This document shows positions 23,978-31,208 of a stretch of DNA of 64,000 nt, in pieces (the first letter of the stretch is position 1; every line of letters begins with the position of its first letter). The notes under the pieces were generated by a model, which searched no databases, had not been told where the DNA came from, and saw only the letters and a program-made list of their open reading frames with translations. Position numbers and translations under genes: made by a program. The stretch comes from Escherichia phage VpaE1_ev108: sequence record LR597658. The stretch is one strand, 5' to 3'.

Positions 23978-24349
23978 ATGAAAAACAGAACAAACAAAGG
24001 CCAGTTTAAAAAAGGCCAGTCTGGAAACCCATCTGGAAGACCAAAAGGCTCTCGTAACAAAAGCTCACTTGTAAAAGCTCAACTGACCATTGATAATTCT
24101 GCTGAGTTTGCTGCAAAGTTGTTTGAGGCGATTGTTACAAGGGACGCTGCTAAGCTTGCAGAGTTCGGGTTAAACACAGACGACGTAACCATCAAGAGCA
24201 TGATTGAGGTAGGTAAAACTATCTTTACTCACTCAGCAGGTGAGATGAAAGCACTTGCAGCAGACACTAAGAAGACTCCTGATAATGGTGGTCAACAACA
24301 GACAGATAACAAACCAACGTTCTCTGCTGTTGCAACCCTCAAAAAATAA
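23978..24349 (+). CDS. hypothetical protein with GNPSGRPKG motif
   Basis: 123 aa ORF, AGAGG SD; basic Gly/Pro N-terminus. Confidence 0.5.
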   Translation: MKNRTNKGQFKKGQSGNPSGRPKGSRNKSSLVKAQLTIDNSAEFAAKLFEAIVTRDAAKLAEFGLNTDDVTIKSMIEVGKTIFTHSAGEMKALAADTKKTPDNGGQQQTDNKPTFSAVATLKK

Positions 24350-24392
24350 TTTTAAAAGGTGTTGACAGACTCTACAAAGTTGCTCTAAAGTC
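24345..24392 (+). promoter_or_regulatory. sigma70-like promoter
   Basis: TTTTAAAAGGTG-TTGACA - 18 nt - TAAAGT. Confidence 0.45.
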
Positions 24393-24430
24393 TGTCACAT
24401 CAACAAACAAAATGAGAGAAGAGAGTAAAT

Positions 24431-25846
24431 ATGAGCGAATTATTTAAACATGCGCACCTTCATGCAGGTCGAACTGAAAATGGTGCTATAAACCATACTT
24501 CATCAATGTCTGCTCTTGTAGACTTTTACAAAGCTGCGGGTTCTAGCCGTAGCAATGTAGAAATCTTACCAGACCTGTTCTACAAAGCTTTGCGTGAGGA
24601 TGTTGATGTTGCAGTTCGTATTTTGCTTCATATGCGAGATGTACGAGAGGGTATGGGTGAGCGTAAAGCTTTCCGAACCGTTTTGCTTCAAGCAATTGAA
24701 GATAAAGTTTTAGAGCCTACACAGGTTCTTCGCATTATGGATAAGATTGCAGAACTTGGTCGTTTTGATGACTTCAAAATCTTCGTAGGTACTCGTTTCG
24801 AGACAGATGCCTTCAAACATTTAGAAGCAGCATTACTAGACCCTGCAACAGCAGGTTTGGCAGCTAAGTGGTTACCACGAGTAAAACCACGTCATAAGCA
24901 GTTTGTAAAACGTTTCTGCAAGTTTGCCAACTTGAGTGAGAAAGAGTACCGCACACTGTTGTCTGCACTATCTGATACAGTTGAGCAAAAAATCTCTGCT
25001 AATGAGTTTGGTAAGATTGACTACAGTAAGATTCCTTCTCTTGCTGCTGCACGTTACCAAAAGCTGTTTAACCGTAAAGATGGAGAGCGTTACAAAGCTT
25101 ACATCGAGTCCTTATCAAAAGGTGAGACTAAGATTAACGCTGGTGCTGTTTACCCATACGATGTGATTAAATCTGTTAAGTATGGTAATGCAGATGTTGC
25201 TAATGAGCAGTGGAAAGCACTACCAAACTGGATGGCAGAAGGTGAAAACATCTTGTGTATGTCTGATGTATCAAGTTCAATGTCTTGGGTGAATTTTGGC
25301 TCCATTACTGCTCTGGATATTGGTGTATCACTTGCCTTGTATGTAGCAGAACGCAATACAGGTTGCTTTAAGAATGAGTTAATGGTTTATTCAACAAACC
25401 CTCACTTCATCGAACTGAGTGGTGATTTACGAAACCGTCATCGTCAGGTGATGCGACACGTTGAATATGGCTCAACTAACTTACAAGCAGCTTTTGACCG
25501 CATTCTTGAAACAGGTAAAAGAAACAACTTGACTCAGAAAGATATGCCAAGTAAGCTTATCATCTTCTCCGATATGGAGTTCAATCAGGTTGATGGAGCT
25601 AACGGTCGTACAAACTTTGAAGCAATTCAGAGTAAGTACAAAAAAGCTGGATATGAGATGCCACAACTGGTATTCTGGTACTTAGCAAACCGTAATGGTA
25701 CTTGCGAAGTATCTGTTAAGGATAACGGTGTAGCAATGGTATCAGGGTTCTCTCCAGCCACTTTAAAAGCTCTGCTTGGTGGTGAGAAGTTTGACCCAAT
25801 CAGCGTAATGCTCAAAGCAGTAATGATTGACCGTTATATCTGGTAA
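24431..25846 (+). CDS. Ro60/TROVE-like protein with C-terminal vWA domain (MIDAS motif)
   Basis: GENILCMSDVSSSMSW (DxSxS MIDAS, cf. Ro60 ..DVSASM as recalled), GSTNLQAAF, LIIFSDMEFN vWA motifs; ~270 aa helical N-terminal region; GAGAG SD. Confidence 0.6.
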   Translation: MSELFKHAHLHAGRTENGAINHTSSMSALVDFYKAAGSSRSNVEILPDLFYKALREDVDVAVRILLHMRDVREGMGERKAFRTVLLQAIEDKVLEPTQVLRIMDKIAELGRFDDFKIFVGTRFETDAFKHLEAALLDPATAGLAAKWLPRVKPRHKQFVKRFCKFANLSEKEYRTLLSALSDTVEQKISANEFGKIDYSKIPSLAAARYQKLFNRKDGERYKAYIESLSKGETKINAGAVYPYDVIKSVKYGNADVANEQWKALPNWMAEGENILCMSDVSSSMSWVNFGSITALDIGVSLALYVAERNTGCFKNELMVYSTNPHFIELSGDLRNRHRQVMRHVEYGSTNLQAAFDRILETGKRNNLTQKDMPSKLIIFSDMEFNQVDGANGRTNFEAIQSKYKKAGYEMPQLVFWYLANRNGTCEVSVKDNGVAMVSGFSPATLKALLGGEKFDPISVMLKAVMIDRYIW

Positions 25847-25849
25847 AAA

Positions 25850-25895
25850 GTTTTAAAAAGGGTATTGACAATGTGTTTAATACCCTTTAATATGT
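25850..25895 (+). promoter_or_regulatory. sigma70-like promoter upstream of tRNA island
   Basis: TTTTAAAAAGGGTA-TTGACA - 17 nt - TAATAT. Confidence 0.55.
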
Positions 25896-25949
25896 TCTAC
25901 ATAGAAACGAAATGAGAGCTTTTCTAAGATACTGAAAAATATTTTAAAA

Positions 25950-25990
25950 AAGTTCTTGACAATCACTAAAAAATAATGTTAAAGTGGTTA
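25950..25990 (+). promoter_or_regulatory. sigma70-like promoter upstream of tRNA island
   Basis: TTTTAAAAAAGTTC-TTGACA - 18 nt - TAAAGT. Confidence 0.45.
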
Positions 25991-26011
25991 CATAGAGTTT
26001 GAAAAGTTTAT

Positions 26012-26088
26012 CTCTGTTTAGCTCAGCTTGGTAGAGCGTTCCGTTTGGGGCGGTAAGGCCGGAGGTTCAAGTCCTCCAACAGAGACCA
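26012..26088 (+). tRNA. tRNA-Pro (anticodon UGG)
   Basis: acceptor CTCTGTT/AACAGAG, T-arm GGAGG-TTCAAGT-CCTCC, loop ttTGGgg, encoded CCA. Confidence 0.6.
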
Positions 26089-26095
26089 AATTAAT

Positions 26096-26173
26096 GTTCC
26101 AGTAGACAAAATGGTAAAGTCACCACTCTTTCAAAGTGGATATCTGAGGGTTCAAATCCCTTCTGGAACGCCA
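26096..26173 (+). tRNA. tRNA-Glu (anticodon UUC)
   Basis: acceptor GTTCCAG/CTGGAAC, T-loop TTCAAAT, anticodon stem CCACT/AGTGG, loop ctTTCaa, CCA. Confidence 0.65.
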
Positions 26174-26178
26174 GTTTT

Positions 26179-26256
26179 GACAGAAGACCAATTACAGCAA
26201 ACTTAATCTTATTCATCTGAAGGTAAATCGGACAAAGAAGAGATTTGGTCTGGTCA
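26179..26256 (+). repeat. E1: conserved bulged-stem element (CAGAAGACCAA ... TTGGTCTGG)
   Basis: 5' block CAGAAGACCAATTACAGCAA and 3' block TTGGTCTGG form a 7 bp helix enclosing ~52 nt. Confidence 0.5.
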
Positions 26257-26264
26257 TTAAGAAT

Positions 26265-26341
26265 TGCGGGTATAGAGAAAGGGCGTCTCACATGTCTCAT
26301 TAGCATGGTATCGGCAGGTTCGACTCCTGCACCCGCCTCCA
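26265..26341 (+). tRNA. tRNA with CAU anticodon (Met, fMet or Ile-lysidine type)
   Basis: T-arm GCAGG-TTCGACT-CCTGC, acceptor with mismatch at pair 1-72, loop ctCATta, CCA. Confidence 0.5.
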
Positions 26342-26345
26342 AATT

Positions 26346-26415
26346 TACAGAAGACCGTTTACAGCAATATTTATTAAATTTTTAGCGGAAAAAATTGAAA
26401 GATACGGTCTGGTAA
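26346..26415 (+). repeat. E2: conserved bulged-stem element (CAGAAGACCGT ... ACGGTCTGG)
   Basis: same flanks as E1 with compensatory AA/TT to GT/AC change in the helix. Confidence 0.5.
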
Positions 26416-26425
26416 TACTAAACAT

Positions 26426-26502
26426 GGTTAGGAAGCACATAAGGTATGTGCGGTCGCCTGTTAAGCGAATGGCACAGGGTTCGAATCCCTGACTAACCGC
26501 CA
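26426..26502 (+). tRNA. tRNA-Asn (anticodon GUU)
   Basis: T-arm CAGGG-TTCGAAT-CCCTG, loop ctGTTaa, CCA. Confidence 0.65.
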
Positions 26503-26571
26503 AATTTAGGAGAGAAGCGATTGCTCACCGATTTGTAAGGTGCAAGTCCTTAGCCTGAATAGAAATTAAAT

Positions 26572-26659
26572 GTGTCGTTATCCCGTAGATGGTAGCGGTG
26601 GGGACTGTAAATCCCTTGTCATTGAGACTCGGTAGGTTCGACTCCTACACGGCACACCA
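26572..26659 (+). tRNA. tRNA-Tyr (anticodon GUA), long variable arm
   Basis: 88 nt; acceptor GTGTCGT/ACGGCAC, anticodon stem GGGGA/TCCCT, loop ctGTAaa, T-loop TTCGACT, CCA. Confidence 0.65.
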
Positions 26660-26664
26660 ATAAA

Positions 26665-26742
26665 GGTTATGTAGTTTAATTTGGTTAAAATACTCCCCTG
26701 TCACGGGAGATGATGAGGGTTCAAATCCCTTCGTAACCGCCA
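26665..26742 (+). tRNA. tRNA-Asp (anticodon GUC)
   Basis: anticodon stem CTCCC/GGGAG, loop ctGTCac, T-loop TTCAAAT, CCA. Confidence 0.7.
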
Positions 26743-26801
26743 ATTTTGAGAGGGCTATTTAGCCCCTCCCTTAAAGGGTTCTTACGAGTATTCTTTAAAG
26801 G

Positions 26802-26880
26802 AGCAGAAGACCAAATTCAGCAAGTTACTTAAAATTTCAAGCCAATTTAATTTTGAAAAATTTAAAACTTGGTCTGGCTC
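26802..26880 (+). repeat. E3: conserved bulged-stem element (CAGAAGACCAA ... TTGGTCTGG)
   Basis: same conserved flanks, ~54 nt AT-rich insert. Confidence 0.5.
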
Positions 26881-26888
26881 AACAAATT

Positions 26889-27024
26889 TACAGAAGACCG
26901 TTTACAGCAAAACTTAACAATCTATTTCTCCGGTAAAGAAAAGGCGAAGGTTCGATTCCTTCACTCGGCAGATGTCGAGTTGGTGTAATGGTAGTACTTA
27001 AGATGATAAACAACGGTCTGGTAA
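26889..27024 (+). ncRNA. E4: candidate structured RNA, bulged stem enclosing a tRNA-like T-arm (Y-RNA-like?)
   Basis: CAGAAGACCGT ... ACGGTCTGG helix; interior has perfect T-arm GAAGG-TTCGATT-CCTTC, a second hairpin ACTCG..CGAGT and D-loop-like AGTTGGTGTAATGGTAG, but no acceptor stem. Confidence 0.35.
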
Positions 27025-27170
27025 TTATCTTTGTAGATAAGTTATTAAGCTTACCTGTGAGTATGCGACCACAAAGGGTGAAAGGGTAAATTCTAGATTT
27101 AAACCCAAAAAGGCACATCGCTACAGACCTTAAGCAAGTCTGGGTAGCTTATCTACAAAGATAATTTAAT

Positions 27171-27246
27171 GGAAGTGTAGCAGAATGGTGATGCGGCAGA
27201 CTTTTAATCTGACAGGCGATGGGTTCGAATCCCTCCACTTCTACCA
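27171..27246 (+). tRNA. tRNA-Lys (anticodon UUU)
   Basis: acceptor GGAAGTG/CACTTCT, loop ctTTTaa, T-loop TTCGAAT, CCA. Confidence 0.6.
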
Positions 27247-27250
27247 ATAT

Positions 27251-27327
27251 GGTTCAGTCGCAGATAAGGTAATGCAAGGGTCTCATAAGCCCTATGAATG
27301 TGGGTTCGATTCCCATCTGAACCTCCA
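27251..27327 (+). tRNA. tRNA-Met (anticodon CAU; GGG/CCC anticodon stem)
   Basis: acceptor GGTTCAG/CTGAACC, loop ctCATaa, T-arm GTGGG-TTCGATT-CCCAT, CCA. Confidence 0.65.
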
Positions 27328-27328
27328 A

Positions 27329-27404
27329 GCTGGTATAGTTAAGAAGGTTATAACACTCCCCTGATAAGGGAACATCGGTGGTTCGATTCCACCTACCAGT
27401 ACCA
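27329..27404 (+). tRNA. tRNA-Ile (anticodon GAU)
   Basis: loop ctGATaa, T-arm GGTGG-TTCGATT-CCACC, CCA. Confidence 0.65.
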
Positions 27405-27411
27405 ATTTCAA

Positions 27412-27450
27412 TAAAGTTGTTGACATTGAGATGTGACTACTTTATAGTAA
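27412..27450 (+). promoter_or_regulatory. sigma70-like promoter internal to tRNA island
   Basis: AAAGTTG-TTGACA - 17 nt - TATAGT. Confidence 0.55.
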
Positions 27451-27651
27451 CCTTAGTTTTCGTTGCGTAGCGTCTATTTTGCAAATTTAAAATAAATGCA
27501 AACGACAATGTTTTTCTGGCAGTAGCTTGATAGGCTAAACACCAGTGAGGTCTTCCAATCCCTCATCAAAGAATTTGGCGTACTCGCCCACGGTATGATT
27601 AATAAGGTGGGCATCTTTAAGGGCTTTCTAAGAGAGTCTTTAAAGATTAAT

Positions 27652-27728
27652 GCACCCTTAGTTCAACTGGACAGAGCAAATGACTTCTAATCATTGAGTT
27701 ACAGGTTCGAATCCTGTAGGGTGTGCCA
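27652..27728 (+). tRNA. tRNA-Arg (anticodon UCU)
   Basis: acceptor GCACCCT/AGGGTGT, anticodon stem AATGA/TCATT, loop ctTCTaa, T-arm ACAGG-TTCGAAT-CCTGT, CCA. Confidence 0.7.
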
Positions 27729-27870
27729 ATTAGTTAGCAGATTACTTAGACGACCTAAGCGGGTCTTCCTGTAGGGAGGTGGTCTGTATCTCATGTTTTC
27801 CAGAACATGTAAATAATCTGAGAAGGGGCTTTACAGTGTTGAGATAATACGGTAAGCTTCGAATTATAGT

Positions 27871-27953
27871 ATGGGACGATGTTAAGACTCTAAGGCATGA
27901 GCAACGGCTTCCAACACCGTTTCAAAGGGGTTCAACTCCTCCGTCCCATGCCA
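27871..27953 (+). tRNA. tRNA-Trp-like (anticodon CCA), atypical 83 nt with enlarged D region
   Basis: perfect acceptor ATGGGAC/GTCCCAT, T-loop TTCAACT, loop ttCCAac, CCA; D-arm cannot be folded canonically. Confidence 0.4.
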
Positions 27954-27966
27954 AAATCTTATTAGG

Positions 27967-28054
27967 GGTAGGTAGCGGCTAATGGTAGCCAAACTGTCTT
28001 GAAAACAGTTGCCACTGTAGAGATACGGTGAGGGTTCGACTCCTTTACTTACCG
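27967..28054 (+). tRNA. tRNA-Ser (anticodon UGA), long variable arm, no encoded CCA
   Basis: 88 nt; anticodon stem ACTGT/ACAGT, loop ctTGAaa, 3-bp D stem, T-loop TTCGACT. Confidence 0.6.
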
Positions 28055-28210
28055 CCTAATAAGATTTAAAGCCAAGCTTCATTCGGATGTTGCTTTGGTA
28101 TCCCGCGTGTATTGTTGTACACACTGATAAAGCACCTAGTAGGTGTCACGGAGAAGAGATAATATCAAGCTCTCCAAAGGTTCTAGTCACCGGATTAAAC
28201 AAGACTATGC

Positions 28211-28233
28211 AAAGACCTTTTTAGGTCTTTTTA
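28211..28233 (+). terminator. hairpin plus T-run inside tRNA island
   Basis: AAGACC-ttttta-GGTCTT followed by TTTTAG; stem uses the same AGACC/GGTCT motif as the E elements. Confidence 0.35.
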
Positions 28234-28311
28234 GAGGGCTTCTAAGGTTATTACAGCTTGTTGTGGAACCTTGTTGCTTAGGTTCTTAGAAGTTCTCTAA
28301 AAAGATTTAAT

Positions 28312-28389
28312 GGGAGATTGACGGTAATTGGTAAACCTATCTCGCTTAGAACGAGATGTTTGAGGGTTCGAATCCCTTGTCTCCTACCA
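28312..28389 (+). tRNA. tRNA with UAG anticodon (Leu by anticodon; class-I length)
   Basis: acceptor GGGAGAT/GTCTCCT, anticodon stem TCTCG/CGAGA, loop ctTAGaa, T-arm GAGGG-TTCGAAT-CCCTT, CCA; short variable arm. Confidence 0.5.
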
Positions 28390-28396
28390 AATTAAT

Positions 28397-28472
28397 GCAG
28401 GTGTAGCAAAATGGTTATGCGGCTGACTCTTAATCAGTAAGACGATGGGTTCAATTCCCTCCACCTGTACCA
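28397..28472 (+). tRNA. tRNA-Lys (anticodon CUU)
   Basis: acceptor GCAGGTG/CACCTGT, loop ctCTTaa, T-loop TTCAATT, CCA. Confidence 0.55.
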
Positions 28473-28477
28473 AAAAT

Positions 28478-28553
28478 GGGGTCATAGTTTATATGGTTAA
28501 AATTCGAGTTTTGCAAACTTGGGAACTGAGTTCAATTCTCAGTGACTCCACCA
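28478..28553 (+). tRNA. tRNA-Ala (anticodon UGC)
   Basis: G3:U70 pair in acceptor stem, loop ttTGCaa, T-arm CTGAG-TTCAATT-CTCAG, CCA. Confidence 0.7.
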
Positions 28554-28559
28554 ATTAGT

Positions 28560-28634
28560 GCATCCATAGTTTAAACGGGAAAATTACAGTCTTCCAAACT
28601 GAGGTTGAGGGTTCGATTCCCTCTGGATGCTCCA
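28560..28634 (+). tRNA. tRNA-Gly (anticodon UCC)
   Basis: perfect acceptor GCATCCA/TGGATGC, loop ctTCCaa, T-loop TTCGATT, CCA. Confidence 0.7.
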
Positions 28635-28641
28635 AATTAAT

Positions 28642-28717
28642 GCTTCTATCGTATAATTGGCTATTACGGTTGCCTTGTAAGTAACTTATCAGGGTTCGAA
28701 TCCTTGTGGGAGCACCA
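28642..28717 (+). tRNA. tRNA-Thr (anticodon UGU)
   Basis: anticodon stem GTTGC/GTAAC, loop ctTGTaa, T-arm CAGGG-TTCGAAT-CCTTG, CCA. Confidence 0.65.
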
Positions 28718-28814
28718 ATTTAGAGGTCAAGTGAAAGACCGCTTTGAGTCAACTGAAGACCGTAACAAATTCCACGGAGTTGAGTTAGCGGCACAACTCC
28801 AGACCTCTTCTCAC

Positions 28815-28889
28815 ACTCGCTTAGTTTATATGGTAAAACACCACCCTTACAAGATGAAGAAAAAGGTTCAAGTCCTTTAGTGAGTACCA
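28815..28889 (+). tRNA. tRNA-Val-like (anticodon UAC), weak anticodon stem, possible pseudo-tRNA
   Basis: acceptor ACTCGCT/AGTGAGT, D-arm GTTT..AAAC, loop ctTACaa, T-arm AAAGG-TTCAAGT-CCTTT, CCA; anticodon stem pairs only 3 of 5. Confidence 0.4.
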
Positions 28890-28890
28890 T

Positions 28891-28968
28891 GTTCCAGTAT
28901 CCCAATTGGCAGAGGATGCAAGCTCAAACCTTGTACTAGTGACGGTTCGAATCCGTCTTGGAACACCA
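28891..28968 (+). tRNA. tRNA with CAA anticodon (Leu by anticodon; class-I length)
   Basis: acceptor GTTCCAG/TTGGAAC, anticodon stem GCAAG/CTTGT, loop ctCAAac, T-arm GACGG-TTCGAAT-CCGTC, CCA. Confidence 0.5.
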
Positions 28969-28973
28969 ATTTT

Positions 28974-29049
28974 GCAGGATTAGTTCAAATGGATAGAGCA
29001 ACAGTCTACGAAGCTGTTAATAGGGGTTCGAATCCCTTATCCTGCGCCA
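28974..29049 (+). tRNA. tRNA-Arg (anticodon ACG)
   Basis: perfect acceptor GCAGGAT/ATCCTGC, D-arm GTTC..GAGC, loop ctACGaa, T-loop TTCGAAT, CCA. Confidence 0.7.
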
Positions 29050-29068
29050 ATTTAAAGAGGCTATTTAG

Positions 29069-29626
29069 ATGAGATATTTGAAGTATGCTTCATGGATTTT
29101 CTTAGCTTTGTTAGAACCATTTGCAGCAATCTTAGCAGTTATCTTAGCACCTTTTGTAGTTCCATTCTACAGTGAGAAGAAAGGACACTTACCTTTCGGG
29201 TTCAGATGGATGGAGACATATGACAACCCAATTGATGGTGATGAAGGTCACGTTAAAAGATGGGCTAATATTAGATGGATTGGTAAACTAGGTGTCTACA
29301 TGCAAAGAGTCGGATGGCTCTGGAGAAACAAAGCTTATAACTTCTCTTACCATGTGTTAGGAAGAGATGTAAAAGATGTTACTAAGTGGAAAGGTAATAT
29401 CAACGTAAGTTCTAACCCTGAAGATAATCAGACAGGTTATCTCCTAATGTGGAACAGTAATGCTTGGGGATTATTCGCTTTTACCCCATCAATTAAAATC
29501 TTTGGTAAACAGTTTTACTGGAGAATTTATATTGGGTGGAAGCTAAAAAGTGTTGTCCCAGAAGAAAGAGCATTCTCAAGGGAAAGAGTTATGTTGGCAT
29601 TCTTTATTCATCCACTAAGAAAGTAA
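29069..29626 (+). CDS. hypothetical Trp-rich membrane protein embedded in tRNA island
   Basis: 185 aa ORF; N-terminal hydrophobic segment WIFLALLEPFAAILAVILAPFVV; AAGAGG SD; TTA/AGA-rich codon usage unlike structural genes. Confidence 0.55.
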   Translation: MRYLKYASWIFLALLEPFAAILAVILAPFVVPFYSEKKGHLPFGFRWMETYDNPIDGDEGHVKRWANIRWIGKLGVYMQRVGWLWRNKAYNFSYHVLGRDVKDVTKWKGNINVSSNPEDNQTGYLLMWNSNAWGLFAFTPSIKIFGKQFYWRIYIGWKLKSVVPEERAFSRERVMLAFFIHPLRK

Positions 29627-29634
29627 AGATTTAA

Positions 29635-29710
29635 AGGGGATTAGTTTACAAGGTTAAAACCTCGGTCTTTGAAATCGAAGAAGTTGGTTCAATTCCAACA
29701 TCCCCCGCCA
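29635..29710 (+). tRNA. tRNA-Gln (anticodon UUG)
   Basis: anticodon stem TCGGT/ATCGA, loop ctTTGaa, T-arm GTTGG-TTCAATT-CCAAC, CCA. Confidence 0.55.
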
Positions 29711-29712
29711 AT

Positions 29713-29791
29713 GCTCCATTACTCCAATTGGCAGAGAGGCCAGACTTAAAATCTGTGTTATGTATCGGTTCGAATCCGATATGGAGTACCA
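29713..29791 (+). tRNA. tRNA with UAA anticodon (Leu by anticodon; class-I length)
   Basis: acceptor GCTCCAT/ATGGAGT, loop ctTAAaa, T-arm ATCGG-TTCGAAT-CCGAT, CCA; variable region about 8 nt. Confidence 0.45.
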
Positions 29792-29796
29792 AATTT

Positions 29797-29872
29797 AGCG
29801 GTATAGCATAACTGGCAATGCAGCAGCCTCTGAAGCTGTCCTATTAAGGTTCAAATCCTTATGCCGCTGCCA
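29797..29872 (+). tRNA. tRNA-Gln (anticodon CUG)
   Basis: anticodon stem GCAGC/GCTGT, loop ctCTGaa, T-arm TAAGG-TTCAAAT-CCTTA, CCA. Confidence 0.6.
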
Positions 29873-29903
29873 CTTCTAAGGATTCTTGCGAGAGTCCTTA
29901 AAT

Positions 29904-29979
29904 GTGGCCTTATCATAAACGGTAATGACCCATGCTGTGAACATGGTCTATACGGGTTCAAATCCCGTAGGTCACCCCA
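29904..29979 (+). tRNA. tRNA-His (anticodon GUG)
   Basis: anticodon stem CCATG/CATGG, loop ctGTGaa, T-arm ACGGG-TTCAAAT-CCCGT, CCA. Confidence 0.65.
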
Positions 29980-29984
29980 ATTTA

Positions 29985-30061
29985 TAGTCCAAGTAGCTTA
30001 TATGGTTAAAGCGCGTGTCTGAAAAACATGAGAAGAGGGTTCAAATCCCACTGGACTACCA
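29985..30061 (+). tRNA. tRNA-Phe (anticodon GAA)
   Basis: perfect acceptor TAGTCCA/TGGACTA, loop ctGAAaa, T-loop TTCAAAT. Confidence 0.6.
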
Positions 30062-30077
30062 ATTTCAAAGGTGCTTA

Positions 30078-30812
30078 ATGAAAGAGATGACAGAACAAGG
30101 TAAGGAGATTTTTAATCTCTTAAAAACCGGTAAAGGGTTCTCTAACCCACTTATTACTGGTGCAGCAGTTCTCGGTGGAACCGTAGCTGCTTCTACATCA
30201 CTTGTAAGCTCTATTAGTTCTGTAACAGACCCTACAATGAAGGAGAAACTTGTTGCTGCTGGACTTACAACAGTCCTTCTAAACAGCTTTACAACAAGCC
30301 TTACAAGCACTACAGCAACTACTAAAACTCTGACAGACTACGGTCAAAAGTCTATTGATGAGTTTTCATCACGTATGCAGGTAGCAAAGGGGTATTCCAA
30401 TGTTATGGGTGCAGCAGGAGAACAAGTTGGTTGTACACCATTCAGTGGTATCATGGGTGTTGCTACAGAGTATGGTCAAAAAGCTATTGACATGATGAAC
30501 AGTACACTAGATAGTGTTAATGGTGTGTTAAGTGACTTGCAAGATGCTATTGATAAGGGTCTTGATACTGTTTCTGATTTAGCTAATCAGGCTGTTAGTA
30601 AGATTAATGAAGGTATTTCAAAGATTACAGCTTATGCAGATGAAGTTGTGCAGATGATTGAAGAAGAAGCTGCCCTTATTGCAGAGTACCTTAAAACGAA
30701 TATCAATGGGTTCTTAGCAGGTATCTTACCAGACTGGTTTGATGATGCCTGTAAAACTGGTGTAATTGACACTATTGCAACACCAGAAATGAAGAGCGCA
30801 TTACAGAAATAA
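30078..30812 (+). CDS. hypothetical Ser/Thr-rich coiled-coil protein
   Basis: start moved to ATG 30078 because ORF-track start 30015 lies inside tRNA-Phe; 244 aa. Confidence 0.5.
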   Translation: MKEMTEQGKEIFNLLKTGKGFSNPLITGAAVLGGTVAASTSLVSSISSVTDPTMKEKLVAAGLTTVLLNSFTTSLTSTTATTKTLTDYGQKSIDEFSSRMQVAKGYSNVMGAAGEQVGCTPFSGIMGVATEYGQKAIDMMNSTLDSVNGVLSDLQDAIDKGLDTVSDLANQAVSKINEGISKITAYADEVVQMIEEEAALIAEYLKTNINGFLAGILPDWFDDACKTGVIDTIATPEMKSALQK

Positions 30813-30813
30813 T

Positions 30814-30906
30814 GGAAGATTAACCCTAAAAGGTAAGGGAGCAGTTTGCTAAACTGCCAGTAGCTGAGAAATCGGTGTACCAGTTCAAGTCTGGTATCTT
30901 CCTCCA
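30814..30906 (+). tRNA. tRNA-Ser (anticodon GCU), long variable arm
   Basis: 93 nt; acceptor GGAAGAT/ATCTTCC, anticodon stem GCAGT/ACTGC, loop ttGCTaa, T-arm ACCAG-TTCAAGT-CTGGT, CCA. Confidence 0.65.
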
Positions 30907-30910
30907 ATTT

Positions 30911-30986
30911 GAATCCGTGACAGAAATGGCTATGTGCCTGTCTGCAAAACAGGTTTATAAGGGTTCGAGTCCCTTCGGATTCTCCA
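30911..30986 (+). tRNA. tRNA-Cys (anticodon GCA)
   Basis: perfect acceptor GAATCCG/CGGATTC, anticodon stem CCTGT/ACAGG, loop ctGCAaa, T-loop TTCGAGT, CCA. Confidence 0.7.
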
Positions 30987-31023
30987 AGTTATTTTACTCT
31001 CTCTCAATTAAAATAATAATAAT

Positions 31024-31084
31024 GCCCTGCTATAAGTATTCTTCCTTTCGCTACCGAAGAGTATTTTTAGACAGGGCTTTTTTA
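31024..31084 (+). terminator. compound hairpin terminator after tRNA island
   Basis: GCCCTG ... CAGGGC outer stem with inner TATTCTTC/GAAGAGTA hairpin, followed by TTTTTTT. Confidence 0.5.
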
Positions 31085-31148
31085 CAGAGTTATACTTTAT
31101 AAGAAGGCTTATACAGTATGTCTCTGACGTACATTGTGGTTTCTCCTT

Positions 31149-31172
31149 GACGGTCTCTGTGCCGTCTTTTTT
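31149..31172 (+). terminator. intrinsic terminator
   Basis: GACGG-tctctgtg-CCGTC followed by TTTTTT. Confidence 0.6.
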
Positions 31173-31208
31173 AAGGAGAAACATGGTTAATTATTTGGAG
31201 AAAACATA

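Follow-up and report, generated by a model that had tools for sequence, protein, structure and literature searches.

Ro60 proteins and their Y RNAs form particles that are found from bacteria to humans and whose function is partly understood; the phage versions have barely been studied. Here we analyze a 64,000-nucleotide stretch of Escherichia phage VpaE1_ev108 (LR597658), further called the window, in which four short elements, E1 to E4, lie among tRNA genes downstream of a gene (24431-25846) whose product is modelled as a Ro60-like ring protein. We propose, with a probability of roughly 0.7, that E1-E4 are Y-kind small non-coding RNAs and partners of this protein. In each predicted RNA, the 5' and 3' ends would close into a common handle, with the hexamer CAGCAA single-stranded and a 3' G unpaired.

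The stable small RNAs of T4-type phages are co-transcribed and co-processed with phage tRNAs, and the first-pass annotation of this DNA had pointed to them as a precedent. This analogy does not extend to the handle, as a search of the T2 tRNA region with the covariance model R2 described below gives no match at E ≤ 10; Tequatrovirus (T4/T2-like) records are also absent from the protein-search matches listed. The locus resembles those of the bacterial YrlA RNAs (RF02553; PMC4201824) in that the RNA genes lie at most 4 kb from a Ro60-type gene on the same strand, several Y RNAs occur per locus with one carrying a tRNA-like domain, and the two ends form a stem whose 5' side bears a short, conserved motif rich in purines. 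The Ro60 of Thermus phage phiLo with its RNAs Yrl1 and Yrl2 (PMC12135203; PDB 9KOP, 9L5Y) likewise combines a phage Ro60-fold protein with adjacent Y-like RNAs, for which a hijack of the host PNPase as a counter-defence was proposed. However, the phiLo RNAs were chosen for a bulged CGAA motif and are located 5' of the gene, the protein is a recognizable Ro60 homolog in UniProt, and neither a CAGCAA handle nor a tRNA-cluster context is described for them (PMC12135203). Metazoan Y RNAs (RF00019) share with E1-E4 the stem formed by the ends, a conserved bulged or internal-loop helix, of which Ro60 reads mainly the 5' strand, a variable loop module, and the occurrence of two to four paralogs per genome, but they have no sequence similarity or Rfam match to E1-E4 and carry no tRNA-like domain. 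Finally, the same gene in a 96.5% identical Felixounavirus encodes Bas63 gp130, for which a 2024 PhageMaP preprint reports a Ro60-like structure and activity against the ppl defence system (PMC11482910). No description of the handle RNAs was found in the literature searched; the closest is the guess of the same preprint that some annotated tRNAs near gp130 might be Y RNAs (PMC11482910), whereas the candidates considered here are unannotated spacers between tRNAs.

By nucleotide comparison the window belongs to a Felixounavirus (298 phage records match), and its part 24400-27200 is 97-98% identical to Felix O1, Bas63 (JohannRWettstein), and many others. The + strand at 26012-30986 carries 26 tRNA genes, and E1-E4 fill spacers among the first six of them. 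The features are as follows.

24431..25846, + strand: Ro60-like protein gene, proposed partner of E1-E4; 471 aa, Pfam DUF2828 + DUF7788.
26179..26256, + strand: E1, predicted short Y-like RNA, between tRNA-Glu (end 26173) and tRNA-Met (start 26265).
E1, outer helix TGAC 26178-26181/GTCA 26253-26256; internal loop AGA 26182-26184/G 26252.
E1, handle AGACCAA 26185-26191/TTGGTCT 26245-26251; CAGCAA 26195-26200.
26346..26415, + strand: E2, predicted short Y-like RNA, between tRNA-Met (end 26341) and tRNA-Asn (start 26426).
E2, handle AGACCGT 26352-26358/ACGGTCT 26404-26410; CAGCAA 26362-26367; 3' G 26411; outer helix TAC/GTA.
26802..26880, + strand: E3, predicted short Y-like RNA, from the pattern match, covariation, and the R2 model.
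E3, handle AGACCAA 26808-26814/TTGGTCT 26869-26875; CAGCAA 26818-26823; 3' G 26876; outer helix (G)AGC/GCT(C).
26889..27024, + strand: E4, predicted permuted tRNA mimic of the YrlA type.

The four elements with a shared 5' block and a 3' GGTCTGG, seen by the first-pass annotation, were recovered by pattern searches of the entire window. The pattern CAGAAGACC-N5-CAGCAA occurs exactly at 26181, 26348, 26804, and 26891 only, all on the + strand and within less than 850 bp; the remaining five matches in the 64 kb need three mismatches each, and none of 100 shuffles attains the observed count. The string AGAAGACC is likewise found in four places only, which are E1-E4, and each copy is followed by GGTCTGG (26247, 26406, 26871, and 27015). 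One detail had been read too broadly, since the block ACAGCAA is not common to all four: E3 reads TTCAGCAA. The inner helix switches exactly as had been noted, AGACCAA/TTGGTCT in E1 and E3 against AGACCGT/ACGGTCT in E2 and E4, and the outer helix of 3-4 bp varies among the copies with pairing retained (TGAC/GTCA, TTAC/GTAA, GAGC/GCTC). Between the two helices lies an invariant AGA/G internal loop. The interiors of E1-E3 are short and A/U-rich.

All four elements occur at syntenic positions in Suspvirus and Mooglevirus, that is, in three Ounavirinae genera including Felixounavirus. Compensatory changes were found both within the Ounavirinae and in distant relatives; for instance, in the E2 orthologs of SUSP1 and two metagenomic (IMG/VR) phages the outer helix UAC/GUA is changed to UGC/GCA. 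The elements are unannotated in the records of Felix O1, Si3, SUSP1, Moogle, and Bas63, and in the Bas63 record two minus-strand "hypothetical protein" calls overlap E3 and E4.

The handle is not confined to this subfamily. It recurs in about 50 of 75 IMG/VR loci encoding DUF2828 proteins (641 kb in all), 38-47% identical to the window protein, as a helix of about 7-8 bp that starts from AGR (pairs A-U, G-C, R-Y), followed by 2-3 nt, (Y)CAGCAA, a variable interior, and a complement ending in YCU and then G. A strict descriptor of this handle gave 68 matches on the gene strand of the 75 loci, two on the opposite strand, and 0-3 in each of five shuffles; none of the matches lies within the gene and most are at most 450 nt from its start or stop. 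Six of the seven handle pairs show double changes, and 100% of the alignment cells are paired, compared to 34-46% when the partner strand is slid (the count is partly circular, as discussed below).

The covariance model R2 was built from 27 short elements of distant metagenomic phages, List-36, and BigCheese, with no Ounavirinae sequence included. In a search of both strands of the whole window, its top four matches are E2 (42.7 bits, E 7.8e-9, the best match of the window), E1 (35.5 bits, E 7e-7), E3 (33.4 bits, E 2.7e-6), and E4 (partial, E 0.065), and the next match has E 0.37. Over 766 kb of loci, all 79 R2 matches at E ≤ 0.01 are on the gene strand; 62 of them are in the distant loci (26 being training sequences of the model) and 11 in the Ounavirinae loci of Felix O1, SUSP1, Moogle, and ESh20. 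A second model of the tRNA-like class, R1, scores E1 at 30.6 bits and has 70 of 70 matches on the gene strand. The E-values of R1 and R2 are rough, as the calibration was shortened, which leaves the bit scores and the strand asymmetry unaffected. At least one match is present in about 49 of the 75 distant loci. Thus the covarying stems, taken by the first-pass annotation as a sign of a functional structure, belong to a strand-specific covarying RNA family that is linked to the DUF2828 gene across distant phages.

In most distant loci the elements adjoin the gene, with 16-450 nt between them and its start or stop. Staphylococcus phage 6ec has three elements after the stop codon of the DUF2828 gene, Campylobacter phage CPX has two before its start, and Klebsiella phage FBKp34 has two short and one tRNA-like element between the gene and the tRNA cluster, as in Felix O1. 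The handle also adjoins the gene in Bacillus phage PJN02, Mycobacterium phage BigCheese, and Listeria phage List-36. A single locus can hold as many as six tandem copies with differing cargos, including two tRNA-like topologies and domains of 150-250 nt. In mycobacteriophage ET08, the 50 kb surrounding the TROVE-type Ro gene give no R2 match. A descriptor based on structure alone (3 bp, AGA, helix, G) accepted far too many sites and was abandoned.

Among the large cargos (about 205-250 nt), two recurrent classes were observed, with the handles AGAGUGR.../...YCACUCUG and AGGAUGG.../...CCAUCCUG. They are located at L012 2843-3061, L018 628-834, and L028 3409-3660, and at about 3650-3900 in L041, L052, L060, and L082 (labels beginning with L denote the analyzed loci). 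Their internal sequence is conserved and has no Rfam match.

E4 is the most elaborate of the window elements, and its parts are the following.

E4, handle AGACCGTT 26895-26902/AACGGTCT 27012-27019; CAGCAA 26905-26910.
E4, closing stem CTTAA 26913-26917/TTAAG 26998-27002.
E4, V (anticodon-arm-like) hairpin 26925-26941: UUUCU-CCGGUAA-AGAAA, 5 bp with a 7 nt loop, followed by AGGC.
E4, T arm 26946-26962: GAAGG-TTCGATT-CCTTC.
E4, acceptor-like hairpin 26963-26980: ACTCGGC-AGAT-GTCGAGT, 7 bp, exactly between the T and D arms.
E4, U8-G9 26981-26982; D arm 26983-26997: GUGU-AAUGGUA-GUAC.

The T arm and the D arm, the latter noticed at first pass as a D-loop-like sequence, are both present, but the element was thought to have no acceptor stem, and the 7 bp hairpin at 26963-26980 takes that place. 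The resulting arm order, V - T - acceptor stem - D, is that of YrlA (PMC4201824), which bears out the initial comparison with the YrlA tRNA-like module. E4 further shares with YrlA the closed acceptor, U8, G18G19, and the UUCGAUU T loop. From its sequence we regard E4 as a circularly permuted tRNA mimic with the YrlA topology. A canonical tRNA (RF00005) was rejected for E1-E4: no tRNA is called in them by ARAGORN, the Rfam tRNA match to E4 is partial (26914-26963) and at 22 bits stays below the 29-bit threshold, and the arm order of E4 is permuted.

Permuted relatives of E4 are found in the distant loci, where a compound descriptor (handle, T arm, and closed acceptor stem) gave 18 matches on the gene strand, none on the other strand, and 0-1 in shuffles. 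For 22 aligned permuted relatives, the helices predicted by RNAalifold are those of the handle, the T arm, and the acceptor, and 18 of their 19 pairs show compensatory changes; with the D stem added, 95% of the cells are paired, compared to 40-43% in slid controls, and 21 of 23 pairs show double changes. The D stem, which was outside the selection criteria, is 79.5% paired and has double changes in three of its four pairs. The acceptor-like helix of E4 itself has been rewritten twice and is still paired (ACTCGGC/GTCGAGT in Felix, ACCCTTC/GAAGGGT in Moogle, ACACG/CGTGT in SUSP1 and ESh20). On R1, E4 scores 102.6 bits, being a member of the training set. R1 matches at tandem tRNAs (window positions 29734, 28326, 28563, and others, and in T2) are false YrlA-like hits and were discounted, as was done by Chen et al.

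In seven relatives the acceptor loop contains N-CCA plus 2-5 nt, for example in Moogle E4 (L004 3711-3760), which reads ACCCTTC-GCCAAACA-GAAGGGT; the other six are distant (L053, L073, L085), and the window E4 has a closed AGAU tetraloop instead. RNase P is reported to split the YrlA of M. smegmatis, leaving a CCA end (PMC4201824), and the N-CCA loops suggest that these RNAs are cut in a similar way, giving a tRNA mimic in two pieces that ends in CCA and can possibly be charged. A different arrangement was observed at L053 3758-3854, L085 6520-6616, and L045 3734-3834, where handle RNAs enclose a non-permuted tRNA body with D, anticodon, and T arms. These bodies have no acceptor stem of their own, and the 7 bp handle with the 3' G stands in its place; Rfam tRNA scores those of L053 and L085 at 41-55 bits. 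The predicted handle RNA family uses two tRNA-mimic topologies.

The protein encoded at 24431-25846 had been singled out at first pass as a candidate RNA binder, and its modelled Ro60 fold agrees with that choice. Its orthologs are bas63_0130 (Bas63 gp130) and Felix O1 ORF42, it matches PHROG 850 "RNA-binding protein", and the protein search matches 709 phage records and more than 2,300 homologs in the protein database. An AlphaFold2 model was built on 42 homologs (predicted local distance difference test score, pLDDT, 88; predicted template modelling score, pTM, 0.88). When this model was compared with PDB by Foldseek, only Ro60/TROVE proteins were found among the best seven matches, each with a full-length alignment (E 2e-8 to 4e-7, TMq 0.48-0.64). 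They are the Ro60 of Thermus phage phiLo (best), Xenopus Ro60, human Ro60, and D. radiodurans Rsr, and they are followed by isolated vWA domains only. The residues D279, S281, S283, T349, and D381 of the MIDAS (metal ion-dependent adhesion site; DxSxS, T, D) are invariant across the 42 homologs. The protein models as a HEAT-repeat Ro60 ring and a vWA domain with a MIDAS site.

Immediately 5' of this gene, a DUF5681 protein (PHROG 4114, unknown function) is encoded at 23978-24349 on the + strand; Felix O1, Si3, SUSP1, Moogle, and ESh20 have it in the same position. Between the two genes, at 24362, there is a promoter-like site with a perfect TTGACA.

E1-E4, which like the Ro60-fold gene are on the + strand, start 333-1043 nt past its stop codon, well inside the proximity of about 4 kb used for YrlA. 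The tRNA-like domain that characterizes YrlA is found in E4 only, and E1-E3 are without it, like the YrlB-type RNAs. YrlA RNAs are further characterized by their binding to Ro60 and by the tRNA modifications Psi55 and D. None of E1-E4 reaches the Rfam gathering threshold of YrlA (69 bits). The YrlA model scores six permuted relatives at 24-39 bits (E 4e-5 to 0.7); the RNA 5' of the TROVE-type Ro gene of ET08, a locus for which a YrlA-like RNA was reported by Chen et al. 2014 (PMC4201824), is in the same range with 37 bits, so that the 69-bit threshold is strict for phage members. The differences from YrlA concern the handle, which here consists of the AGR helix, CAGCAA, and the 3' G, the partner, which belongs to DUF2828/DUF7788 and not to TROVE/vWA_Ro60, the cargo, which is more diverse (non-permuted tRNA bodies and domains of 150-250 nt), and the location of the window genes inside a cluster of 26 tRNAs. 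As the defining YrlA motif is absent and the Rfam threshold is not reached, E1-E4 are not filed as YrlA members.

Two mycobacteriophages illustrate this division. ET08 gp220 matches Pfam TROVE and vWA_Ro60, and its RNAs are long stems with GCCGAGAG / GCCGAAGG of the GNCGAA type. BigCheese gp55 belongs to DUF2828 + DUF7788 and is accompanied by three elements of the form UGGNNNN-UAACAGCAA ... NNNNCCA-G. By their motifs these are two parallel systems, in which DUF2828 proteins are accompanied by the CAGCAA handle and TROVE proteins by the GNCGAA motif, and E1-E4 are read, by analogy, as working like YrlA/YrlB for a sister clade of the Ro60 protein.

If E1-E4 are indeed Y-kind RNAs of the Ro60-like protein, the handle, which in the Felix-type RNAs adds an AGA/G internal loop and an outer helix of 3-4 bp, would be its binding site and the counterpart of the GGUCCGA/GNCGAA stem in classical Y RNAs and YrlA. 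The interior would be a variable cargo, short and A/U-rich in E1-E3 and a complete tRNA-shaped module in E4. Upstream of tRNA-Pro, two matches to the sigma-70-like promoter consensus were found:

25865-25893, + strand: sigma-70-like promoter match, 5' of tRNA-Pro (consensus only, 10/12).
25956-25985, + strand: sigma-70-like promoter match, 5' of tRNA-Pro (consensus only, 10/12).

They likely mark the start of a transcript that carries the tRNAs and E1-E4. No intrinsic terminator with a T-run tail occurs on the + strand before 31149; a candidate without a T-run, at 25857-25888, overlaps the first promoter match. The RNAs are probably part of this transcript of the tRNA operon, and the enzymes that excise the flanking tRNAs would also liberate them. 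E1 begins 6 nt past tRNA-Glu and ends 8 nt ahead of tRNA-Met, and E2 lies 5 nt past tRNA-Met and 10 nt ahead of tRNA-Asn, a spacing so tight that RNase P and the 3' tRNA-trimming enzymes would free these elements almost exactly. Afterwards the RNAs would owe their stability to their paired ends and to the bound protein. The resulting ribonucleoprotein would probably tether or gate the ring towards other factors, by analogy with the Ro60/Y RNA/PNPase particles and phiLo; candidates are host exoribonucleases or, via the tRNA mimic acting as an adaptor or a decoy, tRNA-binding, repair, and defence proteins. The net effect would be to aid the phage against host defences. Beside the observed motif, covariation, strand-specific gene linkage, protein fold, and tRNA-like architecture, this proposal thus includes transcription, processing, protein binding, and a downstream function, which we infer.

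Several results weigh against the assignment. Single-sequence folding energies of E1-E4 are not significant (z -0.7 to -1.8), and the case is therefore comparative rather than thermodynamic. The Rfam Y_RNA and YrlA models, proposed at first pass as a way to detect such RNAs, have no match to E1-E4, either at the gathering threshold or at E ≤ 10, in the searched region 25800-31200, where the other Rfam matches on the elements are chance-level Dicty_Class_I_RNA hits and the partial tRNA in E4 only; no Rfam 15 family matches E1-E3 or the handle. The YrlA 5' motif GNCGAAN0-1G is absent from E1-E4, with CAGCAA in the equivalent place. On the protein side, Pfam TROVE (PF05731) and vWA_Ro60 (PF25045) have no significant match, DUF2828 and DUF7788 being the only domains found; a PDB profile search gives E 0.8-1.4 for the vWA part only, hhalign with the ET08 Ro protein aligns the MIDAS stretch alone, and sequence searches against PDB and NCBIfam yield no significant match. 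About one third of the distant loci have no match at E ≤ 0.01, several of them with variant handles such as UGG.../...CCA-G, GGG.../...CCC-G, and AAGA.../...UCUU-G. The covariation counts are partly circular, as helices 1-3 of one alignment (A2) and the helix of another (A3) were selection criteria; the circle is broken by independent evidence, namely the controls with the opposite strand and with shuffles and the model search across clades. Finally, the linkage is genetic and does not in itself prove that the handle is read by the protein and not by another factor.

This last point leads to the explanation that survives best after the preferred one, although we consider it unlikely. The handle could be read by a host tRNA-processing or tRNA-modifying enzyme, by a host nuclease such as RNase III or RNase E, or by another phage protein, the RNAs being tRNA-like decoys or processing signals and the linkage reflecting a shared pathway. 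Indeed, the 7 bp handle with a single G resembles an acceptor stem with its discriminator base, and it replaces the acceptor stem of the tRNA body at L053 3758, L085 6520, and L045 3734; moreover, the window elements are interleaved with tRNAs. However, the hosts span Actinobacteria, Firmicutes, Campylobacter, and Enterobacteria, and the sole constant neighbor of the handle is the phage DUF2828 gene, usually at most 450 nt away and always on the same strand. The Ro60 fold predicts just such an RNA partner, and the handle is missing both from the TROVE-type Ro locus of ET08 and from the T2 tRNA cluster.

Slightly less probable still, in our estimation, is that the elements act in cis within longer transcripts, as untranslated-region operators or stability elements of the Ro60-like mRNA or as processing or insulator hairpins of the tRNA operon, and are not free RNAs. 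The close position of most distant elements, 16-450 nt from the start or stop of the gene, agrees with this, as do the location of the window elements between tRNAs, where the elements would be excised in any case, and the lack of an evident separate promoter or terminator per element. Such a role fits poorly with elaborate and differing cargos in as many as six tandem copies per locus. The gene and the elements of the window have two promoter-like sites and two tRNAs between them. In many contigs the same handle adjoins the gene with no tRNA called in the stretch examined, which disfavors both the processing spacers and the inverted-repeat insertions considered at first pass. Closed helices at the ends, combined with conserved unpaired motifs, are a usual feature of stable ribonucleoprotein RNAs, and the YrlA and YrlB of M. 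smegmatis share one precursor, yet are free RNAs (PMC4201824).

That the elements are functionless, being degenerate tRNA remnants or the miniature inverted-repeat insertions also named at first pass, is very improbable: the tRNA cluster takes up HNH endonuclease genes in relatives as well, E4 has tRNA arms, and an inverted repeat bounds each element, but the four copies are syntenic in three Ounavirinae genera with compensatory changes, are on one strand with no other copy in the 64 kb, and have a handle conserved with strict strand specificity across phages whose proteins are 27-45% identical, and the permuted arm order is unattainable by simple decay of a tRNA gene.

The tRNA operon contains further RNA features. 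Between E4 and tRNA-Lys, the 149 nt at 27022-27170 (+ strand) form a long closed fold with a minimum free energy of -48.3 kcal/mol (z = -7.2, none of 200 shuffles being as stable). The stem that closes it is about 24 bp long and shows covariation, with UUUGUAG/CUACAAA in the Felix type versus UUUGCAG/CUGCAAA in SUSP1, Moogle, and ESh20. The segment lacks a CAGCAA handle, has no match in Rfam, and is probably another unannotated non-coding RNA of the operon. Downstream, within approximately 27420-27651, a tmRNA-like tag frame GCAAACGACAATGTTTTTCTGGCAGTAGCTTGATAG, encoding ANDNVFLAVA followed by two stop codons, is located at about 27497-27532 (+ strand), 3' of the best promoter-like site of the region (27420-27448, 11/12). 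The Rfam matches here are weak (tmRNA_permuted 27346-27530, 29 bits, E 0.004; tmRNA 27462-27651, E 0.002). A "permuted tmRNA" called by ARAGORN in Moogle joins the E4 T arm and GCCA to the tag frame about 700 nt away, across three tRNAs; it was rejected as a single gene and is considered an artefact.

Some DUF2828 loci also carry genes of RNA repair. In List-36 (L088), a ROOL RNA match (91.5 bits, threshold 99.1) lies 1 kb 5' of the DUF2828 gene, three handle RNAs lie between them, and an RtcB-type "tRNA splicing ligase" is encoded 1.3 kb 3' of the gene (ROOL and RtcB at L088 1426-1977 and 5810-7021, respectively). In one metagenomic phage, a T4 Rnl1-type RNA ligase and a phosphoesterase flank the DUF2828 gene. 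RtcB in List-36, the ligase and phosphoesterase flanks, and the anti-defence activity of Bas63 gp130 fit a role in RNA damage or counter-defence, which they do not prove.

Ro60/Y RNA systems, those of phages included, are already known; what is new here is that a divergent clade of the protein has a handle motif of its own and cargos that are unusually modular. The cargos seen comprise short loops rich in A, tRNA mimics with permuted arms, tRNA bodies lacking an acceptor stem, CCA-ready split forms, and structured domains of 150-250 nt. In a broader proposal, which we hold to be an even bet, DUF2828/DUF7788 proteins would constitute a large unrecognized second clade of tailed-phage Ro60-like rings with a modular RNA family of their own, whose universal handle would plug interchangeable cargos into the ring. 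The particles would take part in an arms race with the defence nucleases of the host at the level of RNA, serving as tRNA decoys or as scaffolds on which RNA is repaired or degraded. This would explain the siting of the genes beside tRNA clusters, RNA ligases, and tmRNA-like genes, together with the anti-defence activity of Bas63 gp130.

A Ro60 clade hitherto filed under two Pfam domains of unknown function thus gains candidate RNA partners with a simple recognizable motif, the binding being predicted. The clade occurs in model and therapeutic phages, such as Felix O1, the BASEL phage Bas63, the Listeria Pecentumvirus group (P100-like), and Staphylococcus, Campylobacter, and Klebsiella phages. 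The annotation is corrected for elements that in the public records examined are either unannotated or hidden under spurious minus-strand open reading frames, and seed alignments become available for a family absent from Rfam 15. It can now be asked whether the anti-defence activity of Bas63 gp130 needs the RNAs, which factors are recruited by the tRNA mimic, and how a ring of the Ro type recognizes a handle of another kind. Since the DUF2828 domain has been reported in plant proteins too, the RNA-binding role may extend beyond phages.

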